Of a stretch of 64,000 nt of DNA, positions 7,143 through 23,450 are shown piece by piece (positions within the stretch are counted from its first letter, which is position 1; every line of letters begins with the position of its first letter). The notes under the pieces are model-generated. The model was not told the DNA's origin. It did no database searches and saw only the letters and a program-made list of their open reading frames with translations. The translations under genes and the position numbers were made by a program. Source of the DNA: Candidatus Bathyarchaeota archaeon (GTDB lineage: Archaea; Thermoproteota; Bathyarchaeia; Bathyarchaeales; Bathycorpusculaceae); contig CAWHVC010000003.1 in assembly GCA_963832745.1 (NCBI GenBank), positions 128,001 through 192,000 on the forward strand. Reading direction: 5' to 3'.

Positions 7143-7338
7143 GTAAAAAGCATGGGAAAATGTAAGATAAGGCGTAAGAAAACACGGTAAAAGTGTAAAT
7201 TTACGCTATTACTCGATTTTCATGGTAAACAGAACGGTAAACAACGGCGTAATCTTACACTTTTTGTAAACAGGCAGTATAAAGGTAAATGGGTGAAAGC
7301 GGTAATTACCTGTGTTTCCTTTGGAAATCACCCTGTAA
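7143..7338 (+). repeat. Cluster of 12 GTAA motifs at the left end of the provirus
   Basis: GTAA at 7143, 7162, 7174, 7187, 7195, 7225, 7237, 7249, 7266, 7285, 7302, 7335; several ~12 bp apart. Confidence 0.55.
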
Positions 7339-7365
7339 ACATGCCCGATTCATTGGAAAAAACAC

Positions 7366-7411
7366 TTATATGCTTGTTTTACCATATCAGCGCTTGGTGA
7401 CATCAGATTGA
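7366..7411 (+). promoter_or_regulatory. Viral early promoter/leader: TTATATGCT box + GCTTGGTGACATCAGATTG (SD + TTG start)
   Basis: Same architecture and nearly the same spacing upstream of the integrase (17398-17444). Confidence 0.7.
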
Positions 7412-8094: not shown

Positions 8095-8097
8095 ACT

Positions 8098-8370
8098 ATG
8101 AGTGAGCAAGAAATTAAAACCCCCAAACCTGCAACCTTAACCTATATCCTTGAAGTATCCCCCAAATGCAACAGGCTACAAGTTGAACAAGAAATGGCTA
8201 TTAGCCTGCGCAAGCTTAACGACTGCAAAGCTGTTGATGCTTACCGTTTTGGTGAACTTCTCGGTACAACCTGTAAGGGCAAAGGCATTACTGACGAAAC
8301 GTTGACGGCTGATTTTACCGTGATTCTTGAAACCGATAAAATTGCAGAGCTTCATGGCTCTAAACTTTAG
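8098..8370 (+). CDS. Viral hypothetical protein
   Basis: ATG 3 nt after the previous stop; operon packing. Confidence 0.65.
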   Translation: MSEQEIKTPKPATLTYILEVSPKCNRLQVEQEMAISLRKLNDCKAVDAYRFGELLGTTCKGKGITDETLTADFTVILETDKIAELHGSKL

Positions 8371-8381
8371 GAGCCTTGCAA

Positions 8382-9263
8382 ATGTCCGAAACACCCGATT
8401 TATTATTCCTTGGGCGAGGCTTAGACGAACCAACCCCCGAACCAACCAACACACGCACAGACAGCGACATGTTAAAAGAAATTTTTGAGCAGTACCCAAC
8501 AGCCGAAGAAGCAAAGAAGCATGTCAACGAGGTTGCAAAAGGAGAAAACAAGTTTAACCGAAAATTCAGCAAACCCAACTGCTACAAGGCAATCAAAAAG
8601 AAATGCAACTTCAAAGGCGATAAACCAAAAGTTTCAAGCCATGAAGCAACCGCAAGCATTCCAGAAGGCGAAGAAATAGAACTCCCCATCGAGCCAGACA
8701 CACCAACACAAACCACTTCAACGCACTTTGAAGATGAAAGCGGCATACCTGAACCTCAACCTTACAACCAACCATTCACAAACTACGAAGCCGTAAAAGC
8801 AGAACTACAACCAATCCAAGAACGAAGCGTCAAAGGCTTAGTCAACAACGTTTTTGACATGATAGGCGTTAAAGGCGAAGGCAAAAACGGCGTAGGTATA
8901 ACCGACCAAGAAAGCAAAGATACAATCACACTTTTGCCCTATATTCTCAAAAAAATAACAAAGGGCGAAATGAACCAAGAAACCTATGAGAACCTAACCA
9001 TTGGTTTACACGTTGGCAACATTGCAACCAAAGCAATAAAAAGCAAAGTTGCAGACCGAACAAACAAGGAACTCAAGAAAATTTTTGCAGAACAACCAAC
9101 AACAACACAGAAAATAACCCCTGCACCACAGCCAGCCCCAGCACCCGAACCAAAGCCAGAGCAGACACCCGAAACCAAACCCGAACAGCCAGCCATAAAC
9201 ATAACAAGCAACGACAGCCGAAACACGCCTTTCCTAAAAGCAATGGAGAAAATGCAACACTAA
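8382..9263 (+). CDS. Viral hypothetical protein with acidic/Pro-rich linkers
   Basis: Long ORF, AGGAG upstream; no recognisable motif. Confidence 0.75.
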   Translation: MSETPDLLFLGRGLDEPTPEPTNTRTDSDMLKEIFEQYPTAEEAKKHVNEVAKGENKFNRKFSKPNCYKAIKKKCNFKGDKPKVSSHEATASIPEGEEIELPIEPDTPTQTTSTHFEDESGIPEPQPYNQPFTNYEAVKAELQPIQERSVKGLVNNVFDMIGVKGEGKNGVGITDQESKDTITLLPYILKKITKGEMNQETYENLTIGLHVGNIATKAIKSKVADRTNKELKKIFAEQPTTTQKITPAPQPAPAPEPKPEQTPETKPEQPAINITSNDSRNTPFLKAMEKMQH

Positions 9264-9276
9264 AGGGGTGACAAGA

Positions 9277-9549
9277 ATGAACTTTGACGATTTAAAAACT
9301 ATCTTAGGCGTTATGAAAACAATTATGCCGCCAGAAAGCCGTGAACAAGTTGATTCATTGCTTAAGCTGGGAGAAATAGCTCAAACAGTGTTGCCCAAAG
9401 ATGCCGTTCAAACAAAGCCATTAATGGAGATGCTTAAGCGCTGTCATGTTGAGCAAACCACTTACAAGGGTAAAAAGTGCGTTGCCATTATCATCGAAAA
9501 AATCCCCCCAGCAATCGAAACAACCGCAATAAAGAAGGCAGACGCATGA
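9277..9549 (+). CDS. Viral hypothetical protein
   Basis: GGGGTGA SD before ATG 9277. Confidence 0.65.
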   Translation: MNFDDLKTILGVMKTIMPPESREQVDSLLKLGEIAQTVLPKDAVQTKPLMEMLKRCHVEQTTYKGKKCVAIIIEKIPPAIETTAIKKADA

Positions 9550-9767
9550 AGCCCTTAAACGCCTCAATAGACATGCAACCATACAATGAAGAAACAATCA
9601 GAACCAACCACGCCAACCTAAAAAGACGCTCCATAGCAGACCTTGAAGCAATCATCGACAGCAACCACGCAAGCCTAACCACAAAAGGTTTAGCCTTCCT
9701 ACTACTGCAAAAAAGAAAACCAGCCGAAAAGCGCAAACTGCCGCCTAAGCAGTTTGTGTGTGTGTGA
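9546..9767 (+). CDS. Viral hypothetical protein
   Basis: ATGA overlap with the previous gene. Confidence 0.5.
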   Translation: MKPLNASIDMQPYNEETIRTNHANLKRRSIADLEAIIDSNHASLTTKGLAFLLLQKRKPAEKRKLPPKQFVCV

Positions 9768-9778
9768 GTGTGTGTATT

Positions 9779-10132
9779 ATGAGTTGTAGCAGTCAACACT
9801 CAACCATTCTTTTCTGCCCCAAATGCCCCAACAAAAAAACACTTACATGCCAGTTCTGCAACGGAACCCAACTCAAAGCCGAACTAATCAAAGAACGCTT
9901 AGAAGTCAAAGCAAAAGACAGAAGGCGCAACTTCAAACAAGAAATAGTACACGTTTTCGTTTTCAACAACGGCTTAGTAACGACCACAGACCAAAAAGAC
10001 GATGTAATGCTTCAATTCACAGGCAAACAAGAAACCAAACTGAAAAGCATCAAACAAAGAATTGACAAACAAAAACCCTGCAAAATAACTTGGCATTCTG
10101 AAAGATGCATGAAAGAAGAGGTTTACGTCTAA
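9779..10132 (+). CDS. Viral Zn-finger protein
   Basis: CPKC...CQFC. Confidence 0.6.
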   Translation: MSCSSQHSTILFCPKCPNKKTLTCQFCNGTQLKAELIKERLEVKAKDRRRNFKQEIVHVFVFNNGLVTTTDQKDDVMLQFTGKQETKLKSIKQRIDKQKPCKITWHSERCMKEEVYV

Positions 10133-10416
10133 TGGTAAAGGTGACGGTTCAAAGAAAATGTGAGTTGGTAATTAACCAACTCATAACAAAAGGCTTCCTA
10201 ATTCAAGTTAACCAAAATCACCTTGATGCCGCAATAATGAGAACGCTTAGAGTGATGGATAAGCGAACAATCAAGAACGTCAAAGATGCAATGGTTTGTT
10301 TGGAATACTTAACGGTAACAGCGCCAGAAGTTTACAAGCTCAATCTTGATGCAATCACAGAAAAAGCGACCCTTGAAGAACTGAAAAGCCGACAGGTGAC
10401 AATCAATGAATGCTGA
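10132..10416 (+). CDS. Viral small winged-helix-like protein
   Basis: GAGG SD before ATG 10132; helix-helix-beta hairpin pattern; aligns ungapped with host ORF 45822-46067. Confidence 0.55.
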   Translation: MVKVTVQRKCELVINQLITKGFLIQVNQNHLDAAIMRTLRVMDKRTIKNVKDAMVCLEYLTVTAPEVYKLNLDAITEKATLEELKSRQVTINEC

Positions 10417-10672
10417 AAGACAAGGAATCTTAGTTAACCGTTTAGACTCTATAGAAAAAGAGTATAAATGGGGTAATAAAGACAAAGCATTCCATTACTT
10501 GACGGAAATCTTGAAAGAAGTCATTAGAGAAGAAAGCCAAGATAACCAACGAATCAGCGATTTAATAAACATAACAAAAGAGCATAACGACAACATCAAC
10601 AATCACAGCCAAGCCTTAACGGAACTACAATCAAAGGAGCATGTTCATAATGGAAAGTCTAAAAATAAATAA
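10406..10672 (+). CDS. Viral hypothetical coiled-coil protein
   Basis: GGTGA SD, overlapping ORF chain. Confidence 0.6.
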   Translation: MNAERQGILVNRLDSIEKEYKWGNKDKAFHYLTEILKEVIREESQDNQRISDLINITKEHNDNINNHSQALTELQSKEHVHNGKSKNK

Positions 10673-10832
10673 GAAAAGGACTTTCCGAGTACGAATAAAC
10701 CGTACAGATACAAGAAAAGGCGAACCCTACCTATCCTTAGTAGCATTAACTGATAGATACATCGAATTAGAGTTTCAAAGTGACGCTAACATACAGCCAG
10801 AACTTAAACCATTAATGGAGAGAGAAAATTGA
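10650..10832 (+). CDS. Viral hypothetical protein
   Basis: AAGGAG upstream of ATG; overlaps the previous ORF. Confidence 0.45.
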   Translation: MESLKINKKRTFRVRINRTDTRKGEPYLSLVALTDRYIELEFQSDANIQPELKPLMEREN

Positions 10833-10974
10833 GTATTATTCTTTCTTTCTCTAACAGTAACACACACTCACACACACAAACTTTAGGTAAGGAAATGAAG
10901 CGGTCTTTAGAGGTTCATTGGAACGGAAAAATTCCTTTGCCTAAAACCGTTAAAACCTTCTTAGGAGCTAAACA

Positions 10975-11610
10975 ATGACAATTTTTCCACGCCTAACCAT
11001 GCCAGCAAACCGAGTTTACAAAGATTGCTGGGCAATCATCGGAATGCGGCAAAGCGGCAAAACAAATTTTCTAAAATGGCTCTTAAGCCAAAGCCACGCA
11101 AGATATACAATCTTTAACACAATCGGCGCAATCAAAGATTGGCAACCACTACACCCCAAAATTCAACGCATCGTCACCCCTAACGGCTGGGAAGATATAC
11201 AAGCATGTTTCAGCAAAACAGCTAAAGAAGTATGGAAGCAAGGCAATCAACAATTCATTATTGACGATATCGCAGTAAGGCACGATGTAAAAGGCAAACT
11301 TAAGCCCTTTTTAACTGATAAGTTTTGGATGCATAGCGAGCTTGCTAAAATAATGAATCAAGGCGGCAACCGAAATATCAGTTTATGGTTAAAGGCTCAA
11401 AGAGTCGCACAAGTTCACAACGACCTATTAAGCAACTGCGACCACCATGTAATCTTTAAGCTCTATTTGCCGCAAGATATTGATTGGTATTCTGGCGTAA
11501 TTCCAAAAACGGTTGTTGAAGCAAGCAAAGACCTTCCCGAACACGAATTTATTTATTACAGGCTGGGCGAGCAACCACAGTTTTGCAAAGCCGTTAAAAG
11601 GATGGTCTAA
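10975..11610 (+). CDS. Genome-packaging ATPase, A32/FtsK-HerA superfamily
   Basis: Walker A GMRQSGKT, Walker B FIIDD, GGNRNISLWLKAQR segment typical of FtsK/HerA-type viral ATPases; ~210 aa, directly upstream of the MCP. Confidence 0.85.
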   Translation: MTIFPRLTMPANRVYKDCWAIIGMRQSGKTNFLKWLLSQSHARYTIFNTIGAIKDWQPLHPKIQRIVTPNGWEDIQACFSKTAKEVWKQGNQQFIIDDIAVRHDVKGKLKPFLTDKFWMHSELAKIMNQGGNRNISLWLKAQRVAQVHNDLLSNCDHHVIFKLYLPQDIDWYSGVIPKTVVEASKDLPEHEFIYYRLGEQPQFCKAVKRMV

Positions 11611-11629
11611 CCGTCAAGACCTGACCGCC

Positions 11630-11665
11630 TTACAGACTTCCAAACCCCTTTTTACAGACTTCCAA
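11630..11665 (+). promoter_or_regulatory. 14-bp direct repeat TTACAGACTTCCAA x2 upstream of the capsid gene TATA box
   Basis: Exact copies at 11630-11643 and 11652-11665; TTTTTAAA at ~11679. Confidence 0.5.
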
Positions 11666-11756
11666 CTTTAAGCGACTCTTTTTAAACATTACGACAACCG
11701 TTCTTAAGAGGGCAAAAAGATACGGTTTACGAAAAGTTTTAGGAGAAAACGTAAAA

Positions 11757-12632
11757 GTGGCATTTAGAAAAATATTTGAAAAATTCTCCATAAAAACCGA
11801 TAAAATAAAAGCAAATACACTAAGCTCAACCACACAAAGCACCGCAGACACAGCCGAAACCGTCACCCTTGAACTCCCCAAAAACAAACTCATTTACGGC
11901 GTTGACCTAAGAGTAACCAAAGACACAGACAGCACACTCGTTGACAACATCAACGAAATAAGAGTATTCCTAAACGGCAACCTCATAATCAAAAAATACG
12001 CTGGCGTTGTCGCAAAAGCAATCGCACTTTTGAACGGTCAAAAATGTTCAACAGGCTTCTACAAAATCTATTTTGTTGACCCACAACTCGGCGGCTCACC
12101 AATCCCAGCAGACGCATTAACCACATTCACTGTGGAAATTGATGTTGCAAAGGCAGGCGCAGGCGTAAAGAACGTTATCACACCAACATTGCTGGAAGGC
12201 TTCAAAGAATCTTTCCCACTGGCACTTAACAAAATCTTAGTTGAAAAATACAGCATTTCCAAAGCATACGGAACCGACACAGGCGAACAAGAATACGGTC
12301 ACGAAAGAACCCAAGACATTCTCGGCTTAATCTACGACTTAGGCGATAACGGCACACGAAGCGACACAGCATTCAGTTACTTAACCCTTGAAGGCAAAAG
12401 CCGCACCGAAGAAATCACCCCATACAGCAAAATGGCATTCAACCAAATTAAAGAACTCAACACCCAAGAAAGCAACGGAAACGCCCTTGCAACTGGAATC
12501 TTTGCTTTAACCTTCCCCGAAGGATTAGCCAGTTACAGATTCACCGAACTAAGAAGCCTCTTGAACATTGCCAGCGCTGGAACCAACTGCACAGCCAAAG
12601 TAATTGAGCGCTTCCTAATCAGCGCCCAATAA
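11757..12632 (+). CDS. Putative double-jelly-roll major capsid protein (PM2 P2/STIV-like)
   Basis: 291 aa, all-beta pattern; TLELP-x4-YGVDLR...INEIRVFLNG...GFYKIYF..P...LTTFTVEID resembles the PM2 P2 N-terminal jelly roll (SIKLP..YEVIDLR..IKNVRVELDG..SFHF..P..LTTCEIKFD, from memory); lies between the ATPase and membrane proteins. Confidence 0.78.
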   Translation: MAFRKIFEKFSIKTDKIKANTLSSTTQSTADTAETVTLELPKNKLIYGVDLRVTKDTDSTLVDNINEIRVFLNGNLIIKKYAGVVAKAIALLNGQKCSTGFYKIYFVDPQLGGSPIPADALTTFTVEIDVAKAGAGVKNVITPTLLEGFKESFPLALNKILVEKYSISKAYGTDTGEQEYGHERTQDILGLIYDLGDNGTRSDTAFSYLTLEGKSRTEEITPYSKMAFNQIKELNTQESNGNALATGIFALTFPEGLASYRFTELRSLLNIASAGTNCTAKVIERFLISAQ

Positions 12633-12648
12633 GGTGAGGTGAAAAAAC

Positions 12649-12882
12649 ATGGCACAACAAGTTAAATCCCAAGTTCAAACCCTAAGCAACCGCCTTTTCA
12701 CTTTAGGCGGCACTCACCGAGCAGGTCAACACAGCCTAACAGACGGCGAAATCGTTTGCGCCGCAATCGCAGGCATAATGATTTTTGCCCCTTCAATGTG
12801 GGCGAAAATGCCACTTGTCGGCAAATACGGAAGCGCAATGATAGCCTTTGCAATCATGGTAATCGCCTTCATAATTTGGTAA
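12649..12882 (+). CDS. Viral membrane protein (2 TM)
   Basis: GGTGAGGTGA SD; two hydrophobic segments. Confidence 0.75.
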   Translation: MAQQVKSQVQTLSNRLFTLGGTHRAGQHSLTDGEIVCAAIAGIMIFAPSMWAKMPLVGKYGSAMIAFAIMVIAFIIW

Positions 12883-12896
12883 GGAGCCCCGAGAAA

Positions 12897-12968
12897 ATGC
12901 CACAAAAAAACATGATTTTGATTGCAGTAGCGGCTTTGCTACTGCTCAGCTTTATGAACTGGCTCTAA
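12897..12968 (+). CDS. Viral small membrane peptide (23 aa)
   Basis: AAGGAG upstream; MPQKNMILIAVAALLLLSFMNWL. Confidence 0.5.
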   Translation: MPQKNMILIAVAALLLLSFMNWL

Positions 12969-13018
12969 GTCAGTTCACCCCACTTTTTTTAGTTAAAATT
13001 TAAGGGAGAACTTCAAAA

Positions 13019-13278
13019 ATGTACAAACTTCAAGCTCCAAAAATAAAATTAAGCCCTTTTTCAACGATTCGAGCCGTTGCAGAAGGGGCAAGCGTAAAGT
13101 CCAAAACTGGAAGGATGAAGTTGCAGACGCAGGCATTATCGCAGGCGTAACCTTTTTCGGCACTATAGGCGGTACGGCGGCAACAGGTGCGGCAAACATT
13201 GAAGGTGCATTGATAGCGGCTGGAAGCATATTCTTTACAATTCTTGCATTGAAACGAGGCTTAGTTAAGGAAGAATAA
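13019..13278 (+). CDS. Viral 2-TM membrane protein requiring a -1 frameshift (or a 1-bp deletion)
   Basis: SD AGGGAG + ATG 13019 (0-frame stop 13148-13150). The -1 frame encodes ...WKDEVADAGIIAGVTFFG...LIAAGSIFFTILALKRGLVKEE* with no ATG/GTG/TTG before the first TM. Slippery heptamer C CCT TTT at 13054-13060. Confidence 0.5.
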
Positions 13279-13280
13279 TC

Positions 13281-13505
13281 ATGGTTGCCGCCGCAGTTTT
13301 AGCCGCCCTTGACATCACAGCCGAGGCATGGAAGCGCTTAACGCCAGAGCAAAAGAAGAAACTTAGAGCGAAATATGACGAGGGCGCAAAAGGATTAGCT
13401 AAAGCATGGGCTAAAACTTGGGCTAAAAATACAAAAAACGCAAAAAAGACCGTTAAAACGGTTTCTAAGACTTTTGCAAAGAAAAAGGGCAAGGGGAAAC
13501 GCTAA
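13281..13505 (+). CDS. Viral small highly basic protein (possible core/DNA-binding)
   Basis: 74 aa, Lys-rich C-terminus. Confidence 0.65.
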   Translation: MVAAAVLAALDITAEAWKRLTPEQKKKLRAKYDEGAKGLAKAWAKTWAKNTKNAKKTVKTVSKTFAKKKGKGKR

Positions 13506-13507
13506 AA

Positions 13508-14302
13508 ATGGTTTGGATTAACCATCAAACCCCCAGCAACTACACAAACCGCCATAGAGATTGGTATCAAGGCGTTTTTCAAGGGGTAGTACACGCTTTT
13601 GCATTGTCAGAAGAATACCGCTATTATCTAAGCATGGAAAAAGAATGCGTAGAAATCAATGCTTGGTTTGCGGCTGACTTCTTAGGCATTCTTAGCTGGC
13701 TGAAAAACTTTTTAATTGACACCAAACGCAAAGCATACCAAAACGGTTACGTTGACGCATACGACCAAGCCGCCCTTTCAGCTTGTAAGGTCATGGAGTC
13801 AACCGAAGGACAAGCCAAAGAGCTTCTTAACAGCATAAACAACGCCTACAACAAAGCCATTTCTGAATCTCAAAAAATGGTTACAAACGTCAGCGACTAC
13901 ATTAACAAGAACATAACCCCCGCCCTAAGTGATGCCCAAACCGCAGTTTCAAACATTAAAACCCAAGTAAACGGCGTTGTAACCCAAATTAACGGCATAA
14001 GCTCACAAGCTCAAAGCGCTCTTAACAACGCAAAAACAGCCTTATCCAACGCCGACAGCGCAGTAAATTACATCAATAACACGATTGTGCCGAGTCTAAA
14101 CAACAAGACAAAGCAGATTGACAGCCTTTTAAGTGATGCACAGAGCAAAGCCAGCCAAATAAGCGTTTTAGGCGTTGACATCGGCAAAGTCAAAGAACGT
14201 TTAGCGGCTTTAGAGAAAGGGCAAACCGTAACCACTGGAAGCACAAGCCCAACCGACAGCATCAAAGACACAATTTCCTCAATTTTTAGACCAAAAAATT
14301 AA
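13508..14302 (+). CDS. Viral coiled-coil structural protein
   Basis: Long Ala/Ser/Asn-rich amphipathic helical repeats. Confidence 0.7.
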   Translation: MVWINHQTPSNYTNRHRDWYQGVFQGVVHAFALSEEYRYYLSMEKECVEINAWFAADFLGILSWLKNFLIDTKRKAYQNGYVDAYDQAALSACKVMESTEGQAKELLNSINNAYNKAISESQKMVTNVSDYINKNITPALSDAQTAVSNIKTQVNGVVTQINGISSQAQSALNNAKTALSNADSAVNYINNTIVPSLNNKTKQIDSLLSDAQSKASQISVLGVDIGKVKERLAALEKGQTVTTGSTSPTDSIKDTISSIFRPKN

Positions 14303-14323
14303 CTTTTTCGGAGAGAAAAAAAA

Positions 14324-14482
14324 TTGTTTGACCTACAAAACTTTAACATTGAAACTTTGAAAAATTTAGCAAACCAACACCAAAAAGAGTTAATCATAGT
14401 GGCTCTTGTGGGTGCGGCTTTGCTGTTAGTTTGTATTGCCAAAAAGCAAAAAGTATCACTTAGCGAGGTAGCCAACGCATGA
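14324..14482 (+). CDS. Viral small membrane protein (52 aa)
   Basis: Hand-translated; GGAG + TTG; LIIVALVGAALLLVCIA TM; ATGA overlap with the next gene. Confidence 0.55.
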   Translation: MFDLQNFNIETLKNLANQHQKELIIVALVGAALLLVCIAKKQKVSLSEVANA

Positions 14483-15060
14483 CCGTAATTGACAGCTTCT
14501 TTGATTGGCTTGAAGCCATAGTCAAGCCTAAGCCAGCAACAACTCAGCCCACAGAGACAGGTTTTGAACTGCAACCCGTCATAGAACAAACCGTCATAGC
14601 ACCCAACCCAACCCCAGCCGAAACAATACAGCCATTAACACCAATCACGCCAGCCGACCCCGAACCAACAACCCAACCCAGCACACCCTTTAACAGCTTC
14701 ACTTACAACGATAGCCCAACAGTGACCCCAACGGCAACCCAGCAAACGGCAACACCCCCAGCAGACGCAACACAAGCGCCAGTAGGCAAAGGAATTTGGC
14801 AAATAAACTTGAACTATGGCTTCATAAGGAAAGTCAACGAGCCAGAGGACTATCACTTAGAATATGGCGGCGCTAACGGTACACGCTTTGATATTGGCAC
14901 TGTCGGAATTTACGCAGATGGCATTAACAAAGCTGGCGTTCTTAGCAAAGCTGACATGATAGAGCATCAAGCCAAAGGCGGCAACATTGCAAAAGCTGAA
15001 TCTGGCTGGAATAAGGCGGCAATAGCTGACGCAGAAACCTTAAGGAGGGTTGTTCAATGA
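14479..15060 (+). CDS. Viral Pro/Thr-rich protein
   Basis: GAGGT SD; PT-rich linker + C-terminal globular part. Confidence 0.7.
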   Translation: MTVIDSFFDWLEAIVKPKPATTQPTETGFELQPVIEQTVIAPNPTPAETIQPLTPITPADPEPTTQPSTPFNSFTYNDSPTVTPTATQQTATPPADATQAPVGKGIWQINLNYGFIRKVNEPEDYHLEYGGANGTRFDIGTVGIYADGINKAGVLSKADMIEHQAKGGNIAKAESGWNKAAIADAETLRRVVQ

Positions 15061-15806
15061 ACGACACAATAAACGTAACCGTCACAACAACACAAACAGT
15101 CACGCCAATTCAAGGCAAAAAGTACATGATGGTAACCGTTGGCGCTGTTGACGTTCTTGTTAAGACTTGCAAACAGCAAAGTGTTAATGAGGATGGCGAG
15201 TTTTTCAAGCTCAAAGCAAACGGCGTTTACACCCTAAAAGCTGACAACGGCGTTTTCTTCTACGTTATCTGCAAAACTGCCGCTGGCTCAAGTACCCTTG
15301 AGATTGTTGCAAGCAATGACGAACTCTTTTTTCTAAACGACCCCTCGTCATTAGCACAAATTACGCCATACATCTTTAAAGGCACTGGCGGCGCTGTTCC
15401 TGACAACACAAGCCTATACGATGCCCTCACATGGAAACTTCAAAATCCCCCCGCATACATAAATCAAGAAAATCCAGTTCAAAATCAGTATTATACGGTT
15501 CTTGATAGTACTGTGCCAACTCGTATTAAGCAAATGGGTTTTCGTGTTGACACAACAGGCGAAACCGTACTTTGTCGAGTAACTATCGATGGTTTTGTTG
15601 TTTCTGCCGCTCCAAGAGTTGCTACAGCGGGGTCAATGTATTGGTGCTATTTTCAACCTGACTTAGATGGCAACGCTGTTTACAATAGCAGTACACTACC
15701 TACCCCAAACTGGCTTGAAGGCAAGACATTGAAAGTTGAAATTTGCAAAACGACAAATGCGGGCAATGGAAATATTCGTTGTGTTGTAGCTTACGAGACA
15801 AGGTGA
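15057..15806 (+). CDS. Viral beta-rich structural protein (possible penton/spike)
   Basis: Two beta-sandwich-like regions; late-operon position. Confidence 0.55.
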   Translation: MNDTINVTVTTTQTVTPIQGKKYMMVTVGAVDVLVKTCKQQSVNEDGEFFKLKANGVYTLKADNGVFFYVICKTAAGSSTLEIVASNDELFFLNDPSSLAQITPYIFKGTGGAVPDNTSLYDALTWKLQNPPAYINQENPVQNQYYTVLDSTVPTRIKQMGFRVDTTGETVLCRVTIDGFVVSAAPRVATAGSMYWCYFQPDLDGNAVYNSSTLPTPNWLEGKTLKVEICKTTNAGNGNIRCVVAYETR

Positions 15807-15810
15807 TTTT

Positions 15811-16224
15811 TTGAAGCCTTCTTTTTCTTTTTTGGCGGCTATCGGCTGTTTTGGCTTTGCAGTTTTGCTTTTTACACGCATGGACTACCTTGTTAACAAT
15901 ACGCTCTATAAACATGGCTTAAAATTCAGTGATGAATGGTACAGCGAGTACAGTTTGTTGTATGCGTTGCTGTTTCAGTTGACGATTGCTTTGATTTATT
16001 TGTGGACTCGTAGCTGGAAACTTTGCTTAGTTCTTGAAGCCTTTGTCTTGTCAAGCTGTCAGGACTTTGTTTATTTTGGTCTTTGGGAAGGCGGCAAGTT
16101 TCCGTCAGGGGATTGGGATTGGATGCCGTTGTTTAAGACTTTTGGGCATTGGACTACTAAAGACCAGTTAGCGTTTAGTGGTTTGGCGTTGGCTGGGGCT
16201 GGCGTTGTGGCGAAGGTGGCTTAA
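15811..16224 (+). CDS. Viral multi-TM membrane protein
   Basis: AGGTGA SD; 3-4 hydrophobic segments. Confidence 0.7.
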   Translation: MKPSFSFLAAIGCFGFAVLLFTRMDYLVNNTLYKHGLKFSDEWYSEYSLLYALLFQLTIALIYLWTRSWKLCLVLEAFVLSSCQDFVYFGLWEGGKFPSGDWDWMPLFKTFGHWTTKDQLAFSGLALAGAGVVAKVA

Positions 16225-16226
16225 AA

Positions 16227-16874
16227 GTGGGTTTGTTTGATTCCTTTTTTTCACCGAATCCCCCGACTCCAAGCGGCAAGAGTTGCACGGGTTGTTTTTG
16301 GAGTGGCTATCAAGGCAAGATTTGCCGAAAACCCGTTAAGCCTGCACCGATTTTAAACGTTGGACATGCTGATTTGTGCGTTAATTATACGACTACGCCG
16401 CCCACTTTTGACAGCACAACTTACACGGCTGTTGAAGCGGTTAAGACGGCGGTTGATGAAAACAAGATAGCTTTATTGGCAAAACCGACTTTTAGCACGG
16501 TGACGGCGAGTGATAACCTTTTGGTTAGTAGTGATGCTGAAATCGTTACGACTTTGACGGTGTACACTAAGTTTAAGGAGTTTAGGGTACAGGTGAACGG
16601 CAAATACAGGGTAACGTTTGATTTGACAATTGTTGGTACGTATGGCACTTACAGTGCTTTTGGACAGGTTTGGAAAAATGGCGCTCCTTATGGAGTTGAA
16701 GCTACAAATAATTCGGGAAATTGGCATACTCGGAGTGATGATTTGGATTTTGTTGTTGGCGATTTGGTGCAGTTGTACGGCAAAGTCTATGTTAGCGGTA
16801 TTGAGTGTCACTTGAAGAATTTTAGGTTGTACGGTTCTATTTCTGGCAATGTTGCCTTTGAAAACCCTGTTTAA
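16227..16874 (+). CDS. Viral putative spike/receptor-binding protein
   Basis: N-terminal Cys cluster, C-terminal beta-sandwich (GKYRVTF...KNG...GDLVQLY). Confidence 0.55.
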   Translation: MGLFDSFFSPNPPTPSGKSCTGCFWSGYQGKICRKPVKPAPILNVGHADLCVNYTTTPPTFDSTTYTAVEAVKTAVDENKIALLAKPTFSTVTASDNLLVSSDAEIVTTLTVYTKFKEFRVQVNGKYRVTFDLTIVGTYGTYSAFGQVWKNGAPYGVEATNNSGNWHTRSDDLDFVVGDLVQLYGKVYVSGIECHLKNFRLYGSISGNVAFENPV

Positions 16875-16876
16875 AC

Positions 16877-17059
16877 CTATGTTTCACCCAGCTTTTTTAT
16901 TTTTGTCTCAACGGATGGTTTGCCTTCGTTGGCACACCAGCGATATAGTTTAGAAATGCTGTCTATTCCGATTTTTTCAAGTATTTTCTTGTTCTCGTTG
17001 AATAAATTTGTAAATTCTTTGTAGTCTTTGGGGGGGATGCGTATTGTTGTTGCTGGCAT
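16877..17059 (-). CDS. Viral ribbon-helix-helix-like repressor candidate
   Basis: MPATTIRIP beta-strand, GIDSISKL helix; only clear minus-strand gene of the element, divergent from the integrase. Confidence 0.6.
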   Translation of the reverse strand: MPATTIRIPPKDYKEFTNLFNENKKILEKIGIDSISKLYRWCANEGKPSVETKIKKLGET

Positions 17060-17248
17060 GGTTGCTTTGATAGGTTGTAAATGGTTTTATTGTTTTTGAT
17101 ATGGTTGTAAACGTTTGTGATTTTTTGATTACATTAATATACGTGGCTGGTTTTTTTCATTTTAACTGTAGTCTCTTAGGTTGGAACTATCAGTTCTAAC
17201 ACACCGTTTAAGAACAGCAAAAAGGTTTGATGGCTGAAAACAATCCTT

Positions 17249-17320
17249 AGGAAAGTAGGCAACGCCGCCCCAAAAAGACATTTGGTGACATCAGATTGAT
17301 GCGGTCTTGCCTACTCCCCT
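17249..17320 (-). ncRNA. Putative viral antisense sRNA (hairpin with guide loop)
   Basis: 14-bp terminal stem that pairs fully only on the minus strand (two G-U pairs) plus a 4-bp inner stem. Upstream minus-strand BRE/TATA GAGAAAGGCTTAATA (17343-17357). Loop is complementary to 7394-7411 and 17427-17444. Confidence 0.6.
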
Positions 17321-17440
17321 TACTCATTTTCTTTTGAAGTCTTATTAAGCCTTTCTCCAAAACTCGAGGTATTCTCAAAACGGTTAAGGGTTAACGTTTA
17401 TATGCTAACTTGCCTCTTCCTATGGCTTGGTGACATCGGA

Positions 17441-18898
17441 TTGAGTAAATTAAGAGGTACTGTAAAGTTTAAAGAAGATTTGTTGGCGATTTTTCGTCAT
17501 TTAAAGAAAAATCCCCAAGAACCCGACCCTATTAAAAGCTGGGCTGTCGTACCCTTTGAAGGCAAAATCAACGGAAAAACACAGAGAATTGACAACAAAC
17601 GAGCATTAGCCGCCTATTTTGGCATTAGCCACATGAAGCTTTATGACATTCTAAAAAAGAACCCTCATGGAGTAGTTGATGCTTCAAAGCCTAAAACAGT
17701 TCAACCCGAAAGCGCAAGGCAGTATCAAGAAACCATTATCCACACTGAAATCATTAAACGCTATGCCAAATACATTAACCCACAAACAGGCTTACTAACA
17801 GGACACGGTGCATCTGTTGACCGCATGGGCGAAAACCTTTTTTTCATGTTCAAACGTGACCCAGCGCTTTTAACAAAGGAGCAGTATGTGCAGGCTGTTC
17901 GTGACCCCCGATTTGCAAAGGCTGACGGCTCAATAAAAGTGGAACAACTCAGCAAAATTAGACTTGTTTTAGATACTGCCGCCCAACTAAAAGACGTTCC
18001 CATAAGTGGCTACAAATTTAGAGATGGTGACGAATTTTATGAACGAGGCTTACAGATTAAAGGCGGCAAATTGGAACTCTACTTACAAGAGCATGAACTA
18101 ATACAATTTGTCAAAAACATTGACTGTATAGACACTTTAGTAATGCACAGACTCGGCTTAGAAGCTGGAAGCCGTATTTCAAGCGCAATGTTGGTTAGCC
18201 GCGAAAATATCTTGTTTGACCTAAACACCATTGTGATGTATGAACCAAAAGTCAAGAAAAAAGAAAAACGCATCTTTGCCACTGAAACACTCGATTTTAT
18301 TAACATGTACATCAGAGAATGCCCTAAGCCAACGCCACAAAACCCCCGAAACATCGGTATAATCGGAAAACTCTTTGAAAGGCACAAGAGCGCAGGCAAA
18401 AATTATCAAAGCTATAATAGTAGCATTAGACGGGCTGGCTTTAATGCTGGACTATGGGGCTACCAGACCGACGCAAAAGGAAAACCAATGTTTACTGAAA
18501 AAACAGTTAGAAAACGAGGCGGCGGCGGTGCATTAGGCAAAGAAAAACACTACTTAACAGAAGGTAAGTTGACAACAAGCCACACAACAATGAAGCACAC
18601 CTTTGTAAGCCTTTCAAGTCAACACGGTTTTAGCATTGATGATTGTGCAAGACAAACAGGAACCAAAGCAAGCACCCTTACAGACTTCTATCACGGCGGC
18701 GGCGAAAGTACACTTTTAGCGCTTATTTTGGGGAAAAGAACTTTCGTGCCTTGGCATGTGTGGATTAGGGAAACTATAGACCCCCTTTATCGAAAACAAT
18801 ATACTGATTTGAAGAGACAGGGCAAATGGACTATTTCGAGCGAGCAACAACGCATTGAAGAAAAGACGCTTAGCGATAAAATCGAGGATGAAGCCTAA
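17441..18898 (+). CDS. Tyrosine recombinase/integrase, divergent
   Basis: Box I LGLEAGSRISS, EPKVKK, box II SHTTMKHTF...QTG...TLTDFY; TTG start at 17441 after GGTGA SD. Confidence 0.8.
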   Translation: MSKLRGTVKFKEDLLAIFRHLKKNPQEPDPIKSWAVVPFEGKINGKTQRIDNKRALAAYFGISHMKLYDILKKNPHGVVDASKPKTVQPESARQYQETIIHTEIIKRYAKYINPQTGLLTGHGASVDRMGENLFFMFKRDPALLTKEQYVQAVRDPRFAKADGSIKVEQLSKIRLVLDTAAQLKDVPISGYKFRDGDEFYERGLQIKGGKLELYLQEHELIQFVKNIDCIDTLVMHRLGLEAGSRISSAMLVSRENILFDLNTIVMYEPKVKKKEKRIFATETLDFINMYIRECPKPTPQNPRNIGIIGKLFERHKSAGKNYQSYNSSIRRAGFNAGLWGYQTDAKGKPMFTEKTVRKRGGGGALGKEKHYLTEGKLTTSHTTMKHTFVSLSSQHGFSIDDCARQTGTKASTLTDFYHGGGESTLLALILGKRTFVPWHVWIRETIDPLYRKQYTDLKRQGKWTISSEQQRIEEKTLSDKIEDEA

Positions 18899-19027
18899 TG
18901 GCTGATTCCTTTTTGACTGTTGAAGATGGCGAGGTTATGGTTAACATTAACTGCCGTTTTCATCATGCCCACATTTCCTTAAAGCAATACAACGCAATTA
19001 AGAAATTGCGGTTAGCGCCAAGCCGAG

Positions 19028-19252
19028 ATGATGACTTCGACCCAACCCCTTTCTAAGAGGCTGAAAACTTTGCACGACTCAGACAAAGAATTAGTCTGTT
19101 GGGTTATTGTCGCTATCTTGGTTTCTGTTGTGGCTGGCTGTTTGATGTTCTACATGATGCACTTAAGTGTCTCAAACAGTCAAGCAATCCCACTTTCAGA
19201 CCCAGCCAACCCACTAAACCCAATATGGCAGGTGAAGGACTTTGGAAGATGA
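19028..19252 (+). CDS. Viral small membrane protein
   Basis: Single TM segment; start uncertain. Confidence 0.45.
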   Translation: MMTSTQPLSKRLKTLHDSDKELVCWVIVAILVSVVAGCLMFYMMHLSVSNSQAIPLSDPANPLNPIWQVKDFGR

Positions 19253-19378
19253 TTGGACTTTTGACTGCCTTTCTTTTCTAATCGGTGGCGATGTTGTTAT
19301 CTTTATTTTTATTGCATTAGCTCTGTTAGGGTTTGTTTAGGAACAAAGTTTTTTAACTCAACCAAACAACCTTTTTTT

Positions 19379-19564
19379 ATGTCACCAAATAAAAACGGCT
19401 TACCTTGCCCTAAATGCAAGACCGAAACTCAAGACCTTTTCTCTGTTGAAAATGGAACCGAAAAAATATTTTGTCTTGTTTGTGGTACCGAGAAAGGACT
19501 TTTAGAAACAGGGGATACCCCAAAAAGCGCCTGCGGCGCACGGCACAAAGTAGCGCAAGTCTAA
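19379..19564 (+). CDS. Viral Zn-ribbon protein
   Basis: CPKC...CLVCG. Confidence 0.55.
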   Translation: MSPNKNGLPCPKCKTETQDLFSVENGTEKIFCLVCGTEKGLLETGDTPKSACGARHKVAQV

Positions 19565-19652
19565 AGAAGTATTCAGGGGTGACCCCCAAAAAGGTTTTTT
19601 GAAGTCTTTTAATTGACTTGATTTTGTTTTTTGAAGTGTAAGAATGTCAATT

Positions 19653-19680
19653 TATGCAGAAACCTAAGAGGGGTAGGTCG
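19653..19680 (+). repeat. attR: 9-bp core + right half of dispersed host repeat (TATGCAGAA-ACCTAAGAGGGGTAGGTCG)
   Basis: Right half matches 31130-31148 at 18/19. Confidence 0.85.
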
Positions 19681-19797
19681 CCTATTGGTTGAAAAGCGCG
19701 CATGTGCATGTTAAAAAAATTAGTGCTTATACAAGAAAAGAGCAACTTGAAGAGAGAGAGAACAGAGCAAAGCACGTAAACAAGCCAAAAAACAGAA

Positions 19798-20055
19798 TTA
19801 CATGTGCTCAACTATTTCAATCACATTAACGGTTGAAGCAATCCAACGCAAATACGCGTTAACCGTGGCCCGTAAAGCAATAGTGTCGTCCGCATCAACC
19901 GTTAACACAAGAAAGTTATCGTTCACCTGCAAATCCACATTTGCTCGATGGGTAACAGGCGAGTTAACTTCAGGCTTCAACGCCGCAACTGCCGCCGTCA
20001 ACTGTTTGGAGTCACAGAATTTCAAACATATAGACGCTTTAGCCTTAATCGCCAT
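19798..20055 (-). CDS. pcc1: KEOPS complex subunit Pcc1
   Basis: ALKPE...ADDTIALRATVNAYLRWI; conserved position after rpl37ae. Confidence 0.88.
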   Translation of the reverse strand: MAIKAKASICLKFCDSKQLTAAVAALKPEVNSPVTHRANVDLQVNDNFLVLTVDADDTIALRATVNAYLRWIASTVNVIEIVEHM

Positions 20056-20146
20056 TAATTTTCACTTGAGAATTAATTATTGTTCAAATAGATAAGGCTA
20101 AGTCAGAAACAAAAAATAAAATAAGTTATAGAAGAAAAGAAGCCGT

Positions 20147-20485
20147 TTACTCGACTTCTTCTTCGGTTGTTGCCGTCTCAACTGCTGGAGCAGTGGTTTT
20201 TGCGGTTTCTTCGGCTACTGCACCTTTTGCAGACCGCCTAGCTACAATACCAAGTTTTGTCAGTGGAGTGTATGCTCCGCCTGCATAGGTATAGTTGCAT
20301 TTACCGCATTGCCAGACGCCGACACTTACGCGGTGTACTCTAACGAAACCGCATTGTGGGCACTTGTGAGGCCTCTTTAGTTCAGTTATCACTTTTACAT
20401 AGCGTTTTCTAACTGTGGAGCCGTAACGTACGCCTAAACCACGAGTTGGACCAACTTTCTTCATTTTCGGCAACTTTTTCACCAA
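20147..20485 (-). CDS. rpl37ae: 50S ribosomal protein eL43 (L37ae)
   Basis: GVRYG, CPQC, GVWQCGKC, AGGAY. Confidence 0.95.
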   Translation of the reverse strand: MVKKLPKMKKVGPTRGLGVRYGSTVRKRYVKVITELKRPHKCPQCGFVRVHRVSVGVWQCGKCNYTYAGGAYTPLTKLGIVARRSAKGAVAEETAKTTAPAVETATTEEEVE

Positions 20486-21270
20486 TCAAGTTTCTTACGC
20501 AGTTCTGCTGCTTTTGCTTGTGCAATCTTTGAAGCTTCTAAAATCTGTTGCGGTGTGAAATAGCCTGAACCACCTTTCTGGATGGCGCAAATGTTACCTT
20601 CATCGTTGGTTGCCATGGTGAGTCTTGAGTCCATTACTTGTTCTTCTTCAAGTTGAGGATCAACGATTAGTTGGTTGTTGATTTTGCCGATTGTAACAGT
20701 GATTGGGTGACTCTTCATTGGTAGTGGTGTGTAGCCTTGCTTGATTTTCAGTTCGCCATCTTTGATTTCATAGTTTGGCATTTTAGTGTTTAGCAATGCA
20801 GCCATTGCAGCTAATGCGGAAGCGTCAATCAGGTTACCGTCATGATTCAACACGTAAACGTCTACGAAGACAACGAAGACTTTTTTGCCTGCTTCAATGC
20901 ACAGTTTTTCTGTGTCGATAGCATGTGATTCACGTATTCCACGGTCAACGATTCTTGCGAGTTCAATGCTGTTTTCGTCTGGTGGTCCTGGCTCAAAGTT
21001 TGGTGAAGCTAACGGTACAAGTTCAGCGTTTACTGTTTGTACACCATCATTTGGTGTATCTGGGAATGGTTCGCCGGTTTCAACTTTAACGCCGACCAGA
21101 ACCTCGGTTTTTCCTAGGTAAACACGTGCTGAACCTTCGGCTTTCTCGATTATTCCTTGTTCAAGTTTGATAGGTCGGTAATCTTGCAGGCCACGTTCAT
21201 CTAAACGTTGGCCTTTTTCGATGTGCTGACTAATTTGCTTCAGTCTAACTCTTGTAATAAGTGATGACAT
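20479..21270 (-). CDS. rrp42: Exosome complex subunit Rrp42
   Basis: RNase PH fold; PFPDTP, FEPGPPDEN, DGNLIDA. Confidence 0.95.
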   Translation of the reverse strand: MSSLITRVRLKQISQHIEKGQRLDERGLQDYRPIKLEQGIIEKAEGSARVYLGKTEVLVGVKVETGEPFPDTPNDGVQTVNAELVPLASPNFEPGPPDENSIELARIVDRGIRESHAIDTEKLCIEAGKKVFVVFVDVYVLNHDGNLIDASALAAMAALLNTKMPNYEIKDGELKIKQGYTPLPMKSHPITVTIGKINNQLIVDPQLEEEQVMDSRLTMATNDEGNICAIQKGGSGYFTPQQILEASKIAQAKAAELRKKLDW

Positions 21271-22019
21271 TACTCTTCAACCTCTTTATCTTCTACGTCT
21301 TTAACAACCATATATTTGGTTTTTAACGCTTCTTTCTGCATCTCATAGATTTTCTTGCAGCCACCCATAGCCAAATCTATAGCTTGCTGGAATTCATCCT
21401 GAGTTAGGATACCATCCATTTGAAGCAGAGTAATAGCGTTTAATGCGGGCATGTAAGCAACTGGAACATCTGCGGCGCCAAGCTTGTCTTCTGCATCGAA
21501 CAAGTCAAGAACAACAGTGTCGTCGACTTTTCCAGCTGCACAAGCAACTACAAGGTCACGCATTGGGACACCAGCGTCAGCAATTGCTAAAGCTGCAGCA
21601 GTGATGGCTGCGCATCTTGTTCCGCCGTCTGCTTGCAATACTTCTATGAAAACGTCTACGCCTGTTCTTGGGTAAAGTTCCAGGAACAATGCTGGTTCGA
21701 GTGATTCACGGATTACTTTTGAGAGTTCAACTTCTCTTCTGGATGGTGCTGGTGATTTTCGTTCTTGAACTGAGAATGGCGCCATGTGATAGCGGCATCT
21801 TAGAACCATTCTGTCTGCAAGTGCTAAGTGTTTTGGATGCATTTCTCTTGGGCCGAAAGCTGCGGCTAAAATCTTGTTTTTACCGTGTTCAATGTAAGCT
21901 GAACCATCAGCGTTTGAGAGTACACCGACTTGAAGTTTTAGGGGCCGAAGTTCATCCGCTTTGCGGCCATCTAATCTAATACCTTTTTTGTCAATCAATT
22001 TATCGGGTTTTTCATTCAT
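21270..22019 (-). CDS. rrp41: Exosome complex exonuclease Rrp41
   Basis: RLDGR, ADGSAY, MAPFSV.ERK, QADGGTR. Confidence 0.96.
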
Positions 22020-22722
22020 TTTGGGGTTCCTCCACTGTTACTTTACTTTCTTTAAGAAGTTGGGTGATACGATCGGTTAGACCACTTGTGTGGGATTCCT
22101 GCTCGATTTTTCTAATAGCTGTGATAGCGAGTTCCTCGTCTTCTGGGGTCTTACCAGTGACCAAAATTACTCCGTTGAGTCCAAGAATAATTTGGCAGTT
22201 TGTTTCCTGTTTAATCATAGAAATCATTGAACCTTTTCTGCCGATGACTCGTGGAATCTTTGTTGGAACAACATGAAGTAATTGTCCACGGGTAATTTTT
22301 CCAAGGCCTGGTTCTCCAACGGTAAGTTGTGGGTCATGCGCTCGGTCGTATGAAGCGATTTTTGCAACAATTAAATCGCCTGCATTTAAAACTTGAGATA
22401 ACTCGTCATTTTGAGGCTTAAAAGGCCTGCTTAAGACGTCGGATGCTCGTAGCATTGCAGTGTAGGGTGACTTAATATCAACTGTCCAACCGTTAAATCC
22501 AACTTCCGTAACGGTTCCAATAACTATGTCGCCTACTTTAGGCACGTAAAAAGCCCTAAGCGCAACCACGTTGACCTTTTTGTTGTCGATATCTACAAGT
22601 CCAATTCGTTGAGCGTAGATTTTGTTTTCTTCAACATACGTGTTTTCGCCGGGTAAATAGTCGCCTTCTGCAAGCATTTCTCCAGGCGTAACAAGCTGTT
22701 TTTTTTCAAAGAATGTTGGCAT
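22012..22722 (-). CDS. rrp4: Exosome RNA-binding subunit Rrp4
   Basis: S1 + KH domains; [17 protein letters not shown]. Confidence 0.95.
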
Positions 22723-22757
22723 AAAATTCTCTTCCAAATTTTAGTTTTCCATTATTT

Positions 22758-23450
22758 TTAAGATATTATTTTTGCTTCTCCACTTCCCTTAGTTACGTCG
22801 CCAAGTTTGTTTAGCACCGAAGCATAAACTCCAGCAGGCATTTCGATTTCCCCATACCAGGAGCCATCACCGCGCCATTCTTCACGTTTAAGAACACCAA
22901 AAGACTTGATTGTTCCATAAGCTCTTGAAGCGAACTGTGATGGCACTTTTACTGCAACAATAACTTGCTCAATCTTTAAAGGCAAAATTGGTCTAAGCAG
23001 TTTAACTATATCCTTTGATTGCTCCTCAACTGACTTGTAAGGGTCAATAGGGTAACGGATTTGCTCCATGGCGTTTTCGATACGTGCCGGTGGATGCGGC
23101 AGATTTGTTTTGGGGTCAACTGCTTGGCGAGAGATAAAATCAATAATTTGCCTGCGTTTATCATCAACCATCTTGCGTCTTTGATCGGTTGTTAACTGCA
23201 AGGTGCCTTTCTTTAAAATTTCATCCGCAATTTTTAATGGGTCAACTGTTTTGAAGGCTTTTTTCATTATTTCTTCAGAAACTTTGGTACCCTTATTAGC
23301 GTCAGAAAAAACAGTTTCAGCGGCTAAAACCTCGGTAATTGCCGATGTTTTGCCGTTTCGGTAATCTAACGCTTTTTGCGGTTTTACTAAGATTTCGAAG
23401 TGCTCGTTGTCTTTGGTTAAGCGTGCAACGGTGAACCTTTCACTCATCAC
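22758..23450 (-). CDS. sdo1: Ribosome maturation protein Sdo1/SBDS
   Basis: HFEILV, DPKTNLPHPPARIE. Confidence 0.95.
   Translation of the reverse strand: MMSERFTVARLTKDNEHFEILVKPQKALDYRNGKTSAITEVLAAETVFSDANKGTKVSEEIMKKAFKTVDPLKIADEILKKGTLQLTTDQRRKMVDDKRRQIIDFISRQAVDPKTNLPHPPARIENAMEQIRYPIDPYKSVEEQSKDIVKLLRPILPLKIEQVIVAVKVPSQFASRAYGTIKSFGVLKREEWRGDGSWYGEIEMPAGVYASVLNKLGDVTKGSGEAKIIS

Follow-up and report, generated by a model that had tools for sequence, protein, structure and literature searches.

The C4 RNA of phages P1 and P7 and the CI RNA of phage P4 are small structured prophage RNAs whose loops pair with the ribosome-binding regions of phage mRNAs, and loops and targets differ together among related phages, giving rise to separate immunity types. 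Here, we describe a hairpin that might encode an RNA of comparable function in a provirus of a Candidatus Bathyarchaeota archaeon. The hairpin lies in a stretch of 64,000 nucleotides (nt) (assembly GCA_963832745.1, contig CAWHVC010000003.1, positions 128,001 to 192,000 of the forward strand), called the window below, and displays at its tip a copy of a short motif that is also found at the start of two viral genes. Bathyarchaeia are abundant and essentially uncultured. To our knowledge, the choice between dormancy and growth in archaeal viruses is almost unknown beyond a few halophile and Sulfolobus models, and nothing is known of it in Bathyarchaeia.

The preliminary description of this locus called the hairpin analogous to P1 C4 and P4 CI. 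The comparison holds for the way in which the RNA would work, as a structured RNA with a loop complementary to leaders, loop and targets co-varying between relatives. It does not hold for family membership: C4 and CI are cut from the transcript of their own targets and derive from inverted copies on one strand, whereas the copies here are direct repeats, the host is an archaeon, there is no sequence likeness, and Rfam gives nothing at the hairpin (E up to 1, positions 5000-21000 searched, with one chance-level match elsewhere). Because the copies are direct repeats, the RNA would have to be transcribed from the opposite strand with its own promoter.

Bacterial trans-encoded small RNAs of the micF type are products of a separate gene that complement the 5′ untranslated region and start of a target mRNA and block initiation. 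The proposed RNA differs in being perfectly complementary over 16-18 nt, virus-borne and aimed at a leader common to all viral mRNAs. The stoperators of L5-type mycobacteriophages are asymmetric protein sites in one orientation, located at promoters and in intergenic regions, and co-vary with immunity type. They differ from the present motif in being bound by protein, in numbering dozens and in not lying at hairpin tips, and they are the model for a rival explanation weighed below.

Two archaeal systems are closer in host. The antisense RNA Tant of the haloarchaeal virus phiH binds an early lytic transcript, whose first open reading frame (ORF) then loses its ribosome-binding site through processing (PMC4284463). 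Tant resembles the proposed RNA as an antisense RNA with an immunity function in an archaeal virus, and differs in being encoded in cis and overlapping a single target (PMC4284463), whereas here a short copy of the leader located elsewhere would act in trans on two or three mRNAs. The intergenic repeats of halovirus HF2 are repeated promoter cassettes that contain the TATA box and have a conserved block covering the transcript start (PMC8707807). All of those repeats are promoters (PMC8707807), whereas only the 16-18 transcribed nt are shared here and one promoterless copy lies in a hairpin. Our literature search on antisense RNA and lysogeny in archaeal viruses found no such trans-acting system in the portions of the papers covered. 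Likewise, the passages covered of one survey of Bathyarchaeia viruses have no mention of jelly-roll or Varidnaviria, and the virus group with a jelly-roll capsid to which this provirus belongs is, within that text, not described (PMC10848311).

A repeated motif and a hairpin in three proviruses

The motif copies and the hairpin of the window are as follows:
7394 to 7411, plus strand: leader motif copy 1, with the predicted 5′ end, the ribosome-binding site GGTGA and the TTG start of the early operon
17282 to 17299, minus strand: motif copy 2, complementary to the leaders on this strand, with CACCAA in the tip loop
17427 to 17444, plus strand: leader motif copy 3, with one mismatch, carrying the ribosome-binding site and TTG start of the integrase gene
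17249 to 17320, minus strand: hairpin, candidate body of an antisense small RNA, on the strength of its fold, its rank and its relatives

The three copies of the 18-mer reported in the preliminary description were all recovered. The sequence TTGGTGACATCAGATTGA occurs exactly at 7394-7411 and 17282-17299 and with one mismatch (A to G) at 17427-17444; its chance expectation in the window is 0.06, and none of 100 shuffles reached three copies. No further match with up to three mismatches was found in the window, and a search of the whole genome (3,021,879 bases) returned the same three sites only, all in the forward orientation, with a reversed-pattern control giving 0. Positions 7394-7414 are identical to the hairpin copy at 20 of 21 bases (repeat family D2). 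The TTG start codons assigned to the two outer copies are also present, at 7408 (228-amino-acid ORF) and at 17441 (485-amino-acid ORF). The hairpin copy had been said to have no gene after it, and indeed no conserved gene follows. There is, nonetheless, a trivial frame of 13 codons at this place, which we rejected as a gene candidate: it exists in the window only and has no start codon in the two related proviruses described below.

The outer stem is the one described earlier, 14 base pairs (bp) between 17249-17262 and 17307-17320 with two G-U pairs on the minus strand. An 81-nt minus-strand RNA (17245-17325) folds at −37.1 kcal/mol (z-score −5.4, reached by 0 of 200 shuffles), compared to −28.6 kcal/mol (z-score −4.3) for the plus strand of the same segment, and the hairpin ranks first among 2504 sliding 90-nt windows taken from both strands of the provirus. 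The placement of the third copy in the loop was correct for CACCAA, which forms the tip loop, while the remaining bases of the motif are weakly paired on the minus strand.

Two related proviruses, both syntenic with that of the window, were found on a single contig of another genome of the genus. The first, L077 (G085:C1:142551-162343), was reached through its integrase homolog, its packaging ATPase, capsid protein and six more late genes matching at 30-76%. The second, L081 (G085:C1:470500-490400), was found via the capsid protein, and the two encode integrases of different families (510 versus 437 amino acids). The L077 motif, TTGAGGATACACACAA, is present in four copies with at most one mismatch, placed at the start of the integrase gene, within a hairpin 159 nt ahead of it, 16 nt short of the capsid start and, with one mismatch, at the early promoter; at up to three mismatches it has six matches, a number reached in 0 of 200 shuffles. 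The L081 motif, TTGAGGATAGATTCAG, has three exact copies (early gene, hairpin and integrase gene), and again 0 of 200 shuffles reached three. L077 and L081 thus each carry a 16-mer and a stem of their own in the layout seen in the window, with the hairpin upstream of the integrase gene. Their motifs share the first 9 bases and differ in the 3′ halves (7 bases).

Because each relative keeps the layout with a different 16-mer, the motif changes in step in all its copies. The co-variation of loop and targets that the preliminary description had proposed to look for is therefore present: three proviruses have three motifs, each common to all the copies of its provirus. The comparison spans three proviruses only, two of them from one genome, which limits its weight in favor of an antisense RNA.

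An imperfect hairpin of 70-86 nt was found in all three proviruses, with unrelated stem sequences. Folding both strands, as had been suggested, gave a more stable antisense form in each: −41.9 versus −35.0 kcal/mol in L077 and −36.2 versus −32.7 kcal/mol in L081, in addition to the values given above, the antisense z-scores ranging from −5.2 to −6.6. Among local windows, the hairpin ranks 1 of 2402 in L077 and 5-6 of 2362 in L081. The six-base tip loops of the antisense folds (CACCAA, CCUCAA and CCUCAA in the window, L077 and L081) complement leader bases 1-6, and in the closing stem the bases just outside the motif pair with motif bases 7-11, the flank varying with the motif (GACAT, GCAT and TAT). 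The G-U pairs of this closing stem, two in the window and one in L077, would be A-C on the sense strand, where the fold is weaker in all three and its shape varies among them. RNAalifold, run on a MAFFT alignment of the three hairpins, returned 11 pairs at −0.86 kcal/mol, a result that is uninformative because this alignment is not structural.

Outside these three proviruses, 11 other loci of the genus with an integrase homolog, all without a capsid gene, had no matching hairpin by eye and no repeat of at least 13 nt at the integrase start.

The motif as a shared leader and its possible reader

The promoters of the two motif-bearing viral genes of the window are:
7365 to 7373, plus strand: TATA box of the early promoter, CTTATATGC, with 20 nt from the 8-bp box to the motif
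17397 to 17405, plus strand: TATA box of the integrase promoter, TTTATATGC, 21 nt before the motif

At all seven promoter copies of the three proviruses, the block of identity begins 20-22 nt after the 8-bp TATA box. Since this is the distance at which the transcript is expected to start, we read the motif as the 5′ leader of the viral mRNAs. The two bases before it are GC at 7/7 promoter copies and AT at 3/3 hairpin copies. The hairpin copy was itself considered as a promoter and discarded, no TATA box being located 20-22 nt upstream in any of the three proviruses. In the host genome, start codons are preceded by a peak of TATA-like words at a distance of 40-50 nt and by one of Shine-Dalgarno-like words at −15 to −11; short leaders are thus the rule, and the motif would therefore be essentially the whole 5′ leader.

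The motif had previously been taken for a Shine-Dalgarno sequence with its start codon. That is the case in the window (7408 and 17441) but not at the capsid and early copies of L077. There, the motif precedes the capsid gene by 16 nt and the early ORF by ~100 nt, which places two of the three promoter copies of this provirus at a clear distance ahead of the start codon. Motif-bearing promoters are limited to the early and integrase ones in the window and L081.

The hairpin RNA would form uninterrupted duplexes of 18, 18, 13, 17, 16, 16 and 16 bp with the seven leaders, the A to G mismatch of the window integrase leader staying paired as G-U. Computed energies were −33.9 to −47.4 kcal/mol for cognate pairs, −13.8 to −32.6 for non-cognate pairs and −12.1 to −24.8 for sense controls. 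One leader fits less well: the early copy of L077 has a C to G change that would oppose G to G in the duplex, and this counts against an antisense RNA. In the early gene of L077 (15127-15245), the leader is moreover followed by ~38 additional bases, a start codon is lacking ahead of the part resembling a ribbon-helix-helix, and the L077 provirus may be decaying.

We tentatively read the hairpin as a trans-acting antisense small RNA that sets immunity specificity, and hold this reading at slightly under an even chance. The repeats, the fold and the co-variation were observed in all three proviruses. The earlier proposal of an antisense RNA switch keeps its support insofar as the copies are functionally tied, the hairpin shape is kept and the antisense fold is favored; what changes is the target, a promoter-proximal leader instead of a start codon region. 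Several aspects point to a reader acting on RNA, namely the confinement of the identity to the transcribed part, starting sharply at the transcript start; the persistence of the motif at L077 promoters where it has no ribosome-binding or start role; the fact that the strongest fold of each provirus carries one copy at its very tip; and a tip stem that co-varies. Only an antisense RNA would give the exact leader copy a direct job.

The feature is real, its copies are tied by the comparative evidence, and we infer the transcript, its strand, its pairing and its effect as follows. The putative small RNA would be transcribed from the minus strand, starting at or near the base of the stem, with the box at 17357-17341 as its promoter. 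The tip loop, CACCAA, would together with the 5′ side of the weak upper stem present the exact complement of the shared mRNA leader, the targets being the early operon from 7394 and the integrase mRNA from 17427. Pairing would begin at the loop and zip into a duplex of 16-18 bp that takes in the 5′ end and the ribosome-binding site, plus the start codon in those leaders that include one, which would block translation or trigger cleavage of every mRNA bearing the leader. The provirus would stay silent, incoming viruses with the same leader would be shut off, and immunity specificity would follow from leader and RNA changing together. Plus-strand read-through to the T-tract at 17327-17335 would yield a fully complementary RNA that could soak up the antisense RNA once lytic transcription starts. 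As a matter of speculation, a sense read-through ending at this tract would be a perfect sponge, and both strands may matter.

The presence of two related proviruses with different motifs in one genome is consistent with the motif being an immunity determinant, and their coexistence on one contig is the pattern anticipated for viruses with self-immunity but no mutual immunity. A broader form of the antisense proposal, a "leader lock" in which all viral mRNAs share the leader, one opposite-strand RNA silences them all, both diversify together and the sense sponge flips the switch, seems to us a real but doubtful possibility. If true, this would give archaeal viruses their first trans-acting antisense immunity RNA, and its immunity types would let two related proviruses share one cell. 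Were the antisense reading right, the novelty would lie in a virus-borne RNA acting in trans against a common leader, antisense regulation of immunity being known; it would provide a model of archaeal provirus silencing and of immunity to superinfection that can be put to the test, immunity groups readable from sequence alone, and a compact, sequence-programmable regulatory part.

The motif could instead be an asymmetric operator in double-stranded DNA, placed at +1 of every viral promoter and bound by a protein that the virus encodes, for instance the early protein with its likeness to a ribbon-helix-helix. The third site, which has the same orientation and precedes the integrase promoter, would then serve as a roadblock or as a partner in looping, and the hairpin would be a mere terminator. 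Regulator and sites would co-vary to give immunity types, as with the one-orientation stoperators of mycobacteriophages. We consider this unlikely, though it deserves weight. The motif overlaps the predicted start site at 7/7 promoters, all copies have a single orientation, and the spacing between the hairpin and integrase copies is similar in the three proviruses (145, 159 and 158 nt in the window, L077 and L081). The first early gene does encode a protein with a ribbon-helix-helix-like N-terminus, a call without Pfam or Foldseek support, and L077 and L081 share both the first 9 bases of the motif and a near-identical N-terminal strand (VGYRLD and VSYRLD), the window being different on either count. 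An operator does not, however, account for the constant presence of one copy at the apex of the strongest hairpin, where the flanking bases pair with the motif itself, nor for an identity that starts at the transcript start and not upstream. Nor does it explain how, given equal strand residues, the 7 bases distinguishing L077 from L081 would be read. No internal repeat or palindrome was seen by eye in the three motifs, which is a weak test, and better candidates for protein sites are the repeats found ahead of the early TATA box (7180-7335 in the window, 6360-6400 in L081). Even under an operator, the promoters, leaders and immunity determinant of this virus group would be defined.

Strand signals around the hairpin

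The choice of strand is the weak point of the antisense reading, and three elements bear on it:
17341 to 17357, minus strand: box resembling a TFB recognition element (BRE) with TATA box, AAAGGCTTAATAAGAC, 6.9 bits, 99.89th percentile of background
17327 to 17335, plus strand: T-tract TTTTCTTTT followed by GAAG, 6 nt after the stem, terminator-like, conserved in all three proviruses
17207 to 17225, either strand: conserved block TTTAAGAACAGCAAAAA, which on the plus strand holds a TATA-like box 34 nt before the stem and on the minus strand a T5 run 23-27 nt after it

The minus-strand BRE-TATA noticed in the preliminary description is present (GAGAAAGGCTTAATAAG at 17357-17341), its TATA-like box ending 20 nt before the stem. 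The box AAAGGCTTAATAAGAC is the best match on that strand within the 360 nt scanned, 20-21 nt before the stem. Scores were obtained with a host promoter matrix that we derived by expectation-maximization on 246 upstream regions, which gave a weak BRE/TATA consensus, AAAGC-TTTAAT; the matrix is itself weak, clear viral TATA promoters scoring only 3-5 bits, and does not separate the strands. A scan for sigma-70 promoters and terminators left the hairpin unflagged, such a scan being not applicable to archaea.

Several observations here weigh against the antisense RNA. At a spacing of 20-23 nt, the minus-strand box is weak in L081 (4.1 bits, with candidates at 23 and 36 nt) and outside the top 8 matches in L077. 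Minus-strand T-runs after the hairpin are T4 and T5 in the window and T4 in L081, and L077 has none of at least four T over more than 100 nt. On the plus strand, a TATA-like box no worse than that of the minus strand is kept 21-34 nt before the stem in all three proviruses (TTTAAGAA, TTTAATAA and CTTAAACA), and strong T-tracts (T4CT4, T5CT5 and T6GT4), better than the minus-strand runs, follow the stem by 5-7 nt, also in all three. With this box and tract, the anatomy suits a plain terminator or a sense RNA equally, and the plus strand, too, has the look of a complete promoter-hairpin-terminator unit. Over the whole folds, moreover, the G-U asymmetry amounts to only 9 antisense-only pairs versus 3 possible sense-only pairs, a leaning that is not significant.

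These observations bear on another explanation, in which the plus strand is the functional one and the hairpin is either a terminator insulating the integrase gene from late transcription or a short sense decoy RNA that displays the leader copy to any factor binding viral leaders. This appears to us quite improbable. The TTTAA box 21-34 nt before the stem, aligned in 3/3 within the conserved upstream block, and the host-type T-run and GAAG 5-7 nt after it are found in all three proviruses; in the 5-30 nt that follow host stop codons, T5 runs outnumber A5 runs about two to one, and the plus-strand promoter scores (4.1-4.7 bits, 4.7 in the window) are similar to those of the minus-strand candidates of L081. 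A terminator, on the other hand, needs neither an imperfect hairpin of 70-86 nt nor an exact leader copy at the tip, and L077 and L081 already have a T-tract directly after their last late gene. The sense fold is the weaker in all three with an inconsistent shape, its tip stem breaks in the window and L077, and a decoy RNA has no known partner. Read on the minus strand, this T-tract forms an A-rich spacer that separates the TATA-like box from the stem.

The provirus and its other genes

The wider context of the motif is set by the following features:
7044 to 19650, plus strand: integrated provirus with a double-jelly-roll capsid, ~12.6 kb, its left edge firm and its right edge approximate
7408 to 8094, plus strand: first early gene, 228 amino acids, with a ribbon-helix-helix-like N-terminus and two four-cysteine clusters
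17441 to 18898, plus strand: integrase gene, tyrosine-recombinase-like on an indirect basis, 485 amino acids
16877 to 17059, minus strand: ORF of 60 amino acids, the sole minus-strand ORF of the provirus, downstream of the hairpin on that strand

The nearest genome of the genus, G008, aligns to window positions 11-7043 and 19781-23435 as one stretch and has ~640 nt in place of 12.7 kb, and on this alignment the insert was delimited as 7044 to ~19650, where likeness to the host returns weakly. The neighbors of the provirus are a HAD hydrolase gene on one side and an L37ae-exosome cluster on the other. The packaging ATPase (10975-11610) matches phrog_2666 (8.9e-14), and the capsid protein (11757-12632) has a weak P2_N match, with PF18628 in four homologs; the PM2-type capsid protein family numbers 22 cluster representatives in the protein collection.

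These borders bear on a last explanation, in which the copies are att-like recombination sites or parts of an origin with a nick site in the hairpin loop. In its favor, the copies form direct repeats with ~10 kb between them and an integrase gene next to them and are, weak chance-level matches aside, the only repeats that link both ends of the region. All three, however, lie inside the insert, host sequence ending at 7043 and resuming at or before 19781, and so they are not att sites; with the borders at 7043/7044 and ~19650-19780, this candidate was rejected. Exchange between copies would fail to take the integrase gene along, the genome would be cut if each promoter held an extra nick site, and the fixed distance of the copies from a TATA box at 7/7 promoters fits neither role, which makes this explanation very improbable.

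In an alignment of 16 homologs of the early protein, C66, C93, C108, C111, C176, C187, C190 and C202 are invariant, and the model of the protein has a coil at 1-9 and helices at 10-23 and 30-58 (pLDDT about 90). Its family is small (15 representatives at E ≤ 0.001, query included). No Pfam family was found, and Foldseek gave no match at E 0.001 or better, because of which the ribbon-helix-helix is a name that we infer.

The 485-amino-acid protein encoded at the right end, which by its own sequence matches nothing in Pfam, PHROG or the PDB, is probably a tyrosine recombinase, on indirect grounds: the distant homologs P0016 and P0017 carry PF00589, a profile matches PDB 3nkh "Integrase" at E 0.047, and the family has invariant columns R258, K283, H394, K398, H399 and Y430, which we take to be catalytic residues. 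The genus has twelve full-length homologs (41-45% identity), that of L077 among them, with matches at E ≤ 1e-5 in 20 of 120 genomes, the window's own counted; the closest protein is P0002 (62%), and the viral contig and genome contig collections gave no match to the integrase protein. For the capsid protein, the closest are P0024 (82%) and P0025 (76%). Scans of genomes with the protein or its profile found it in 2/120 (genus), 3/332 (family), 2/401 (order sample) and 2/401 (class sample), own genome counted, and its alignment had no match in the viral contig collection or the phage collection. Of two metagenome scans, the first found none and the second six short contigs (L084-L089), none reaching the hairpin region.

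The 60-amino-acid ORF is absent at the equivalent place in L077 and L081 and has a 52% homolog in locus L066. Pfam gave nothing below E 0.05, a fold search gave no match at E 0.001 or better, and the model is a four-helix one (pLDDT 77); the product may be a small DNA-binding protein. The ORF has its own TATA-like box near 17133-17143 and could also be co-transcribed with the putative hairpin RNA.

Other features of the provirus were noted. In loci L071 and L073, a homolog of the early protein directly follows the integrase gene, and in L069 a homolog of the third viral ORF does so instead, an order that fits a circular form joined between the integrase and early genes. A GT-rich inverted repeat (9751-9773 and 10860-10882, 19 nt perfect and 23 nt at 91%) flanks 1.08 kb of small ORFs, which could be an inserted or invertible segment. 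The 350 nt from the left border to the early promoter contain CGGTAAA-like repeats and a small palindrome, TTTCCTTTGGAAA (7150-7335), as well as an 18-nt inverted repeat (7189-7206 and 7247-7264), and L081 has GTTTTCAC-like repeats at the equivalent place (6360-6400); those of the window, upstream of the early promoter, look like protein sites or an origin. Lastly, a tandem motif, AAGCATGGGAAAGTGTGCAATAAGC, is common to L066 (9673/9707), L069 (10546/10580), L072, L074 and L076, all with an integrase of the same family, and a similar word occurs in the window at ~7150-7175, near the left end of the provirus.

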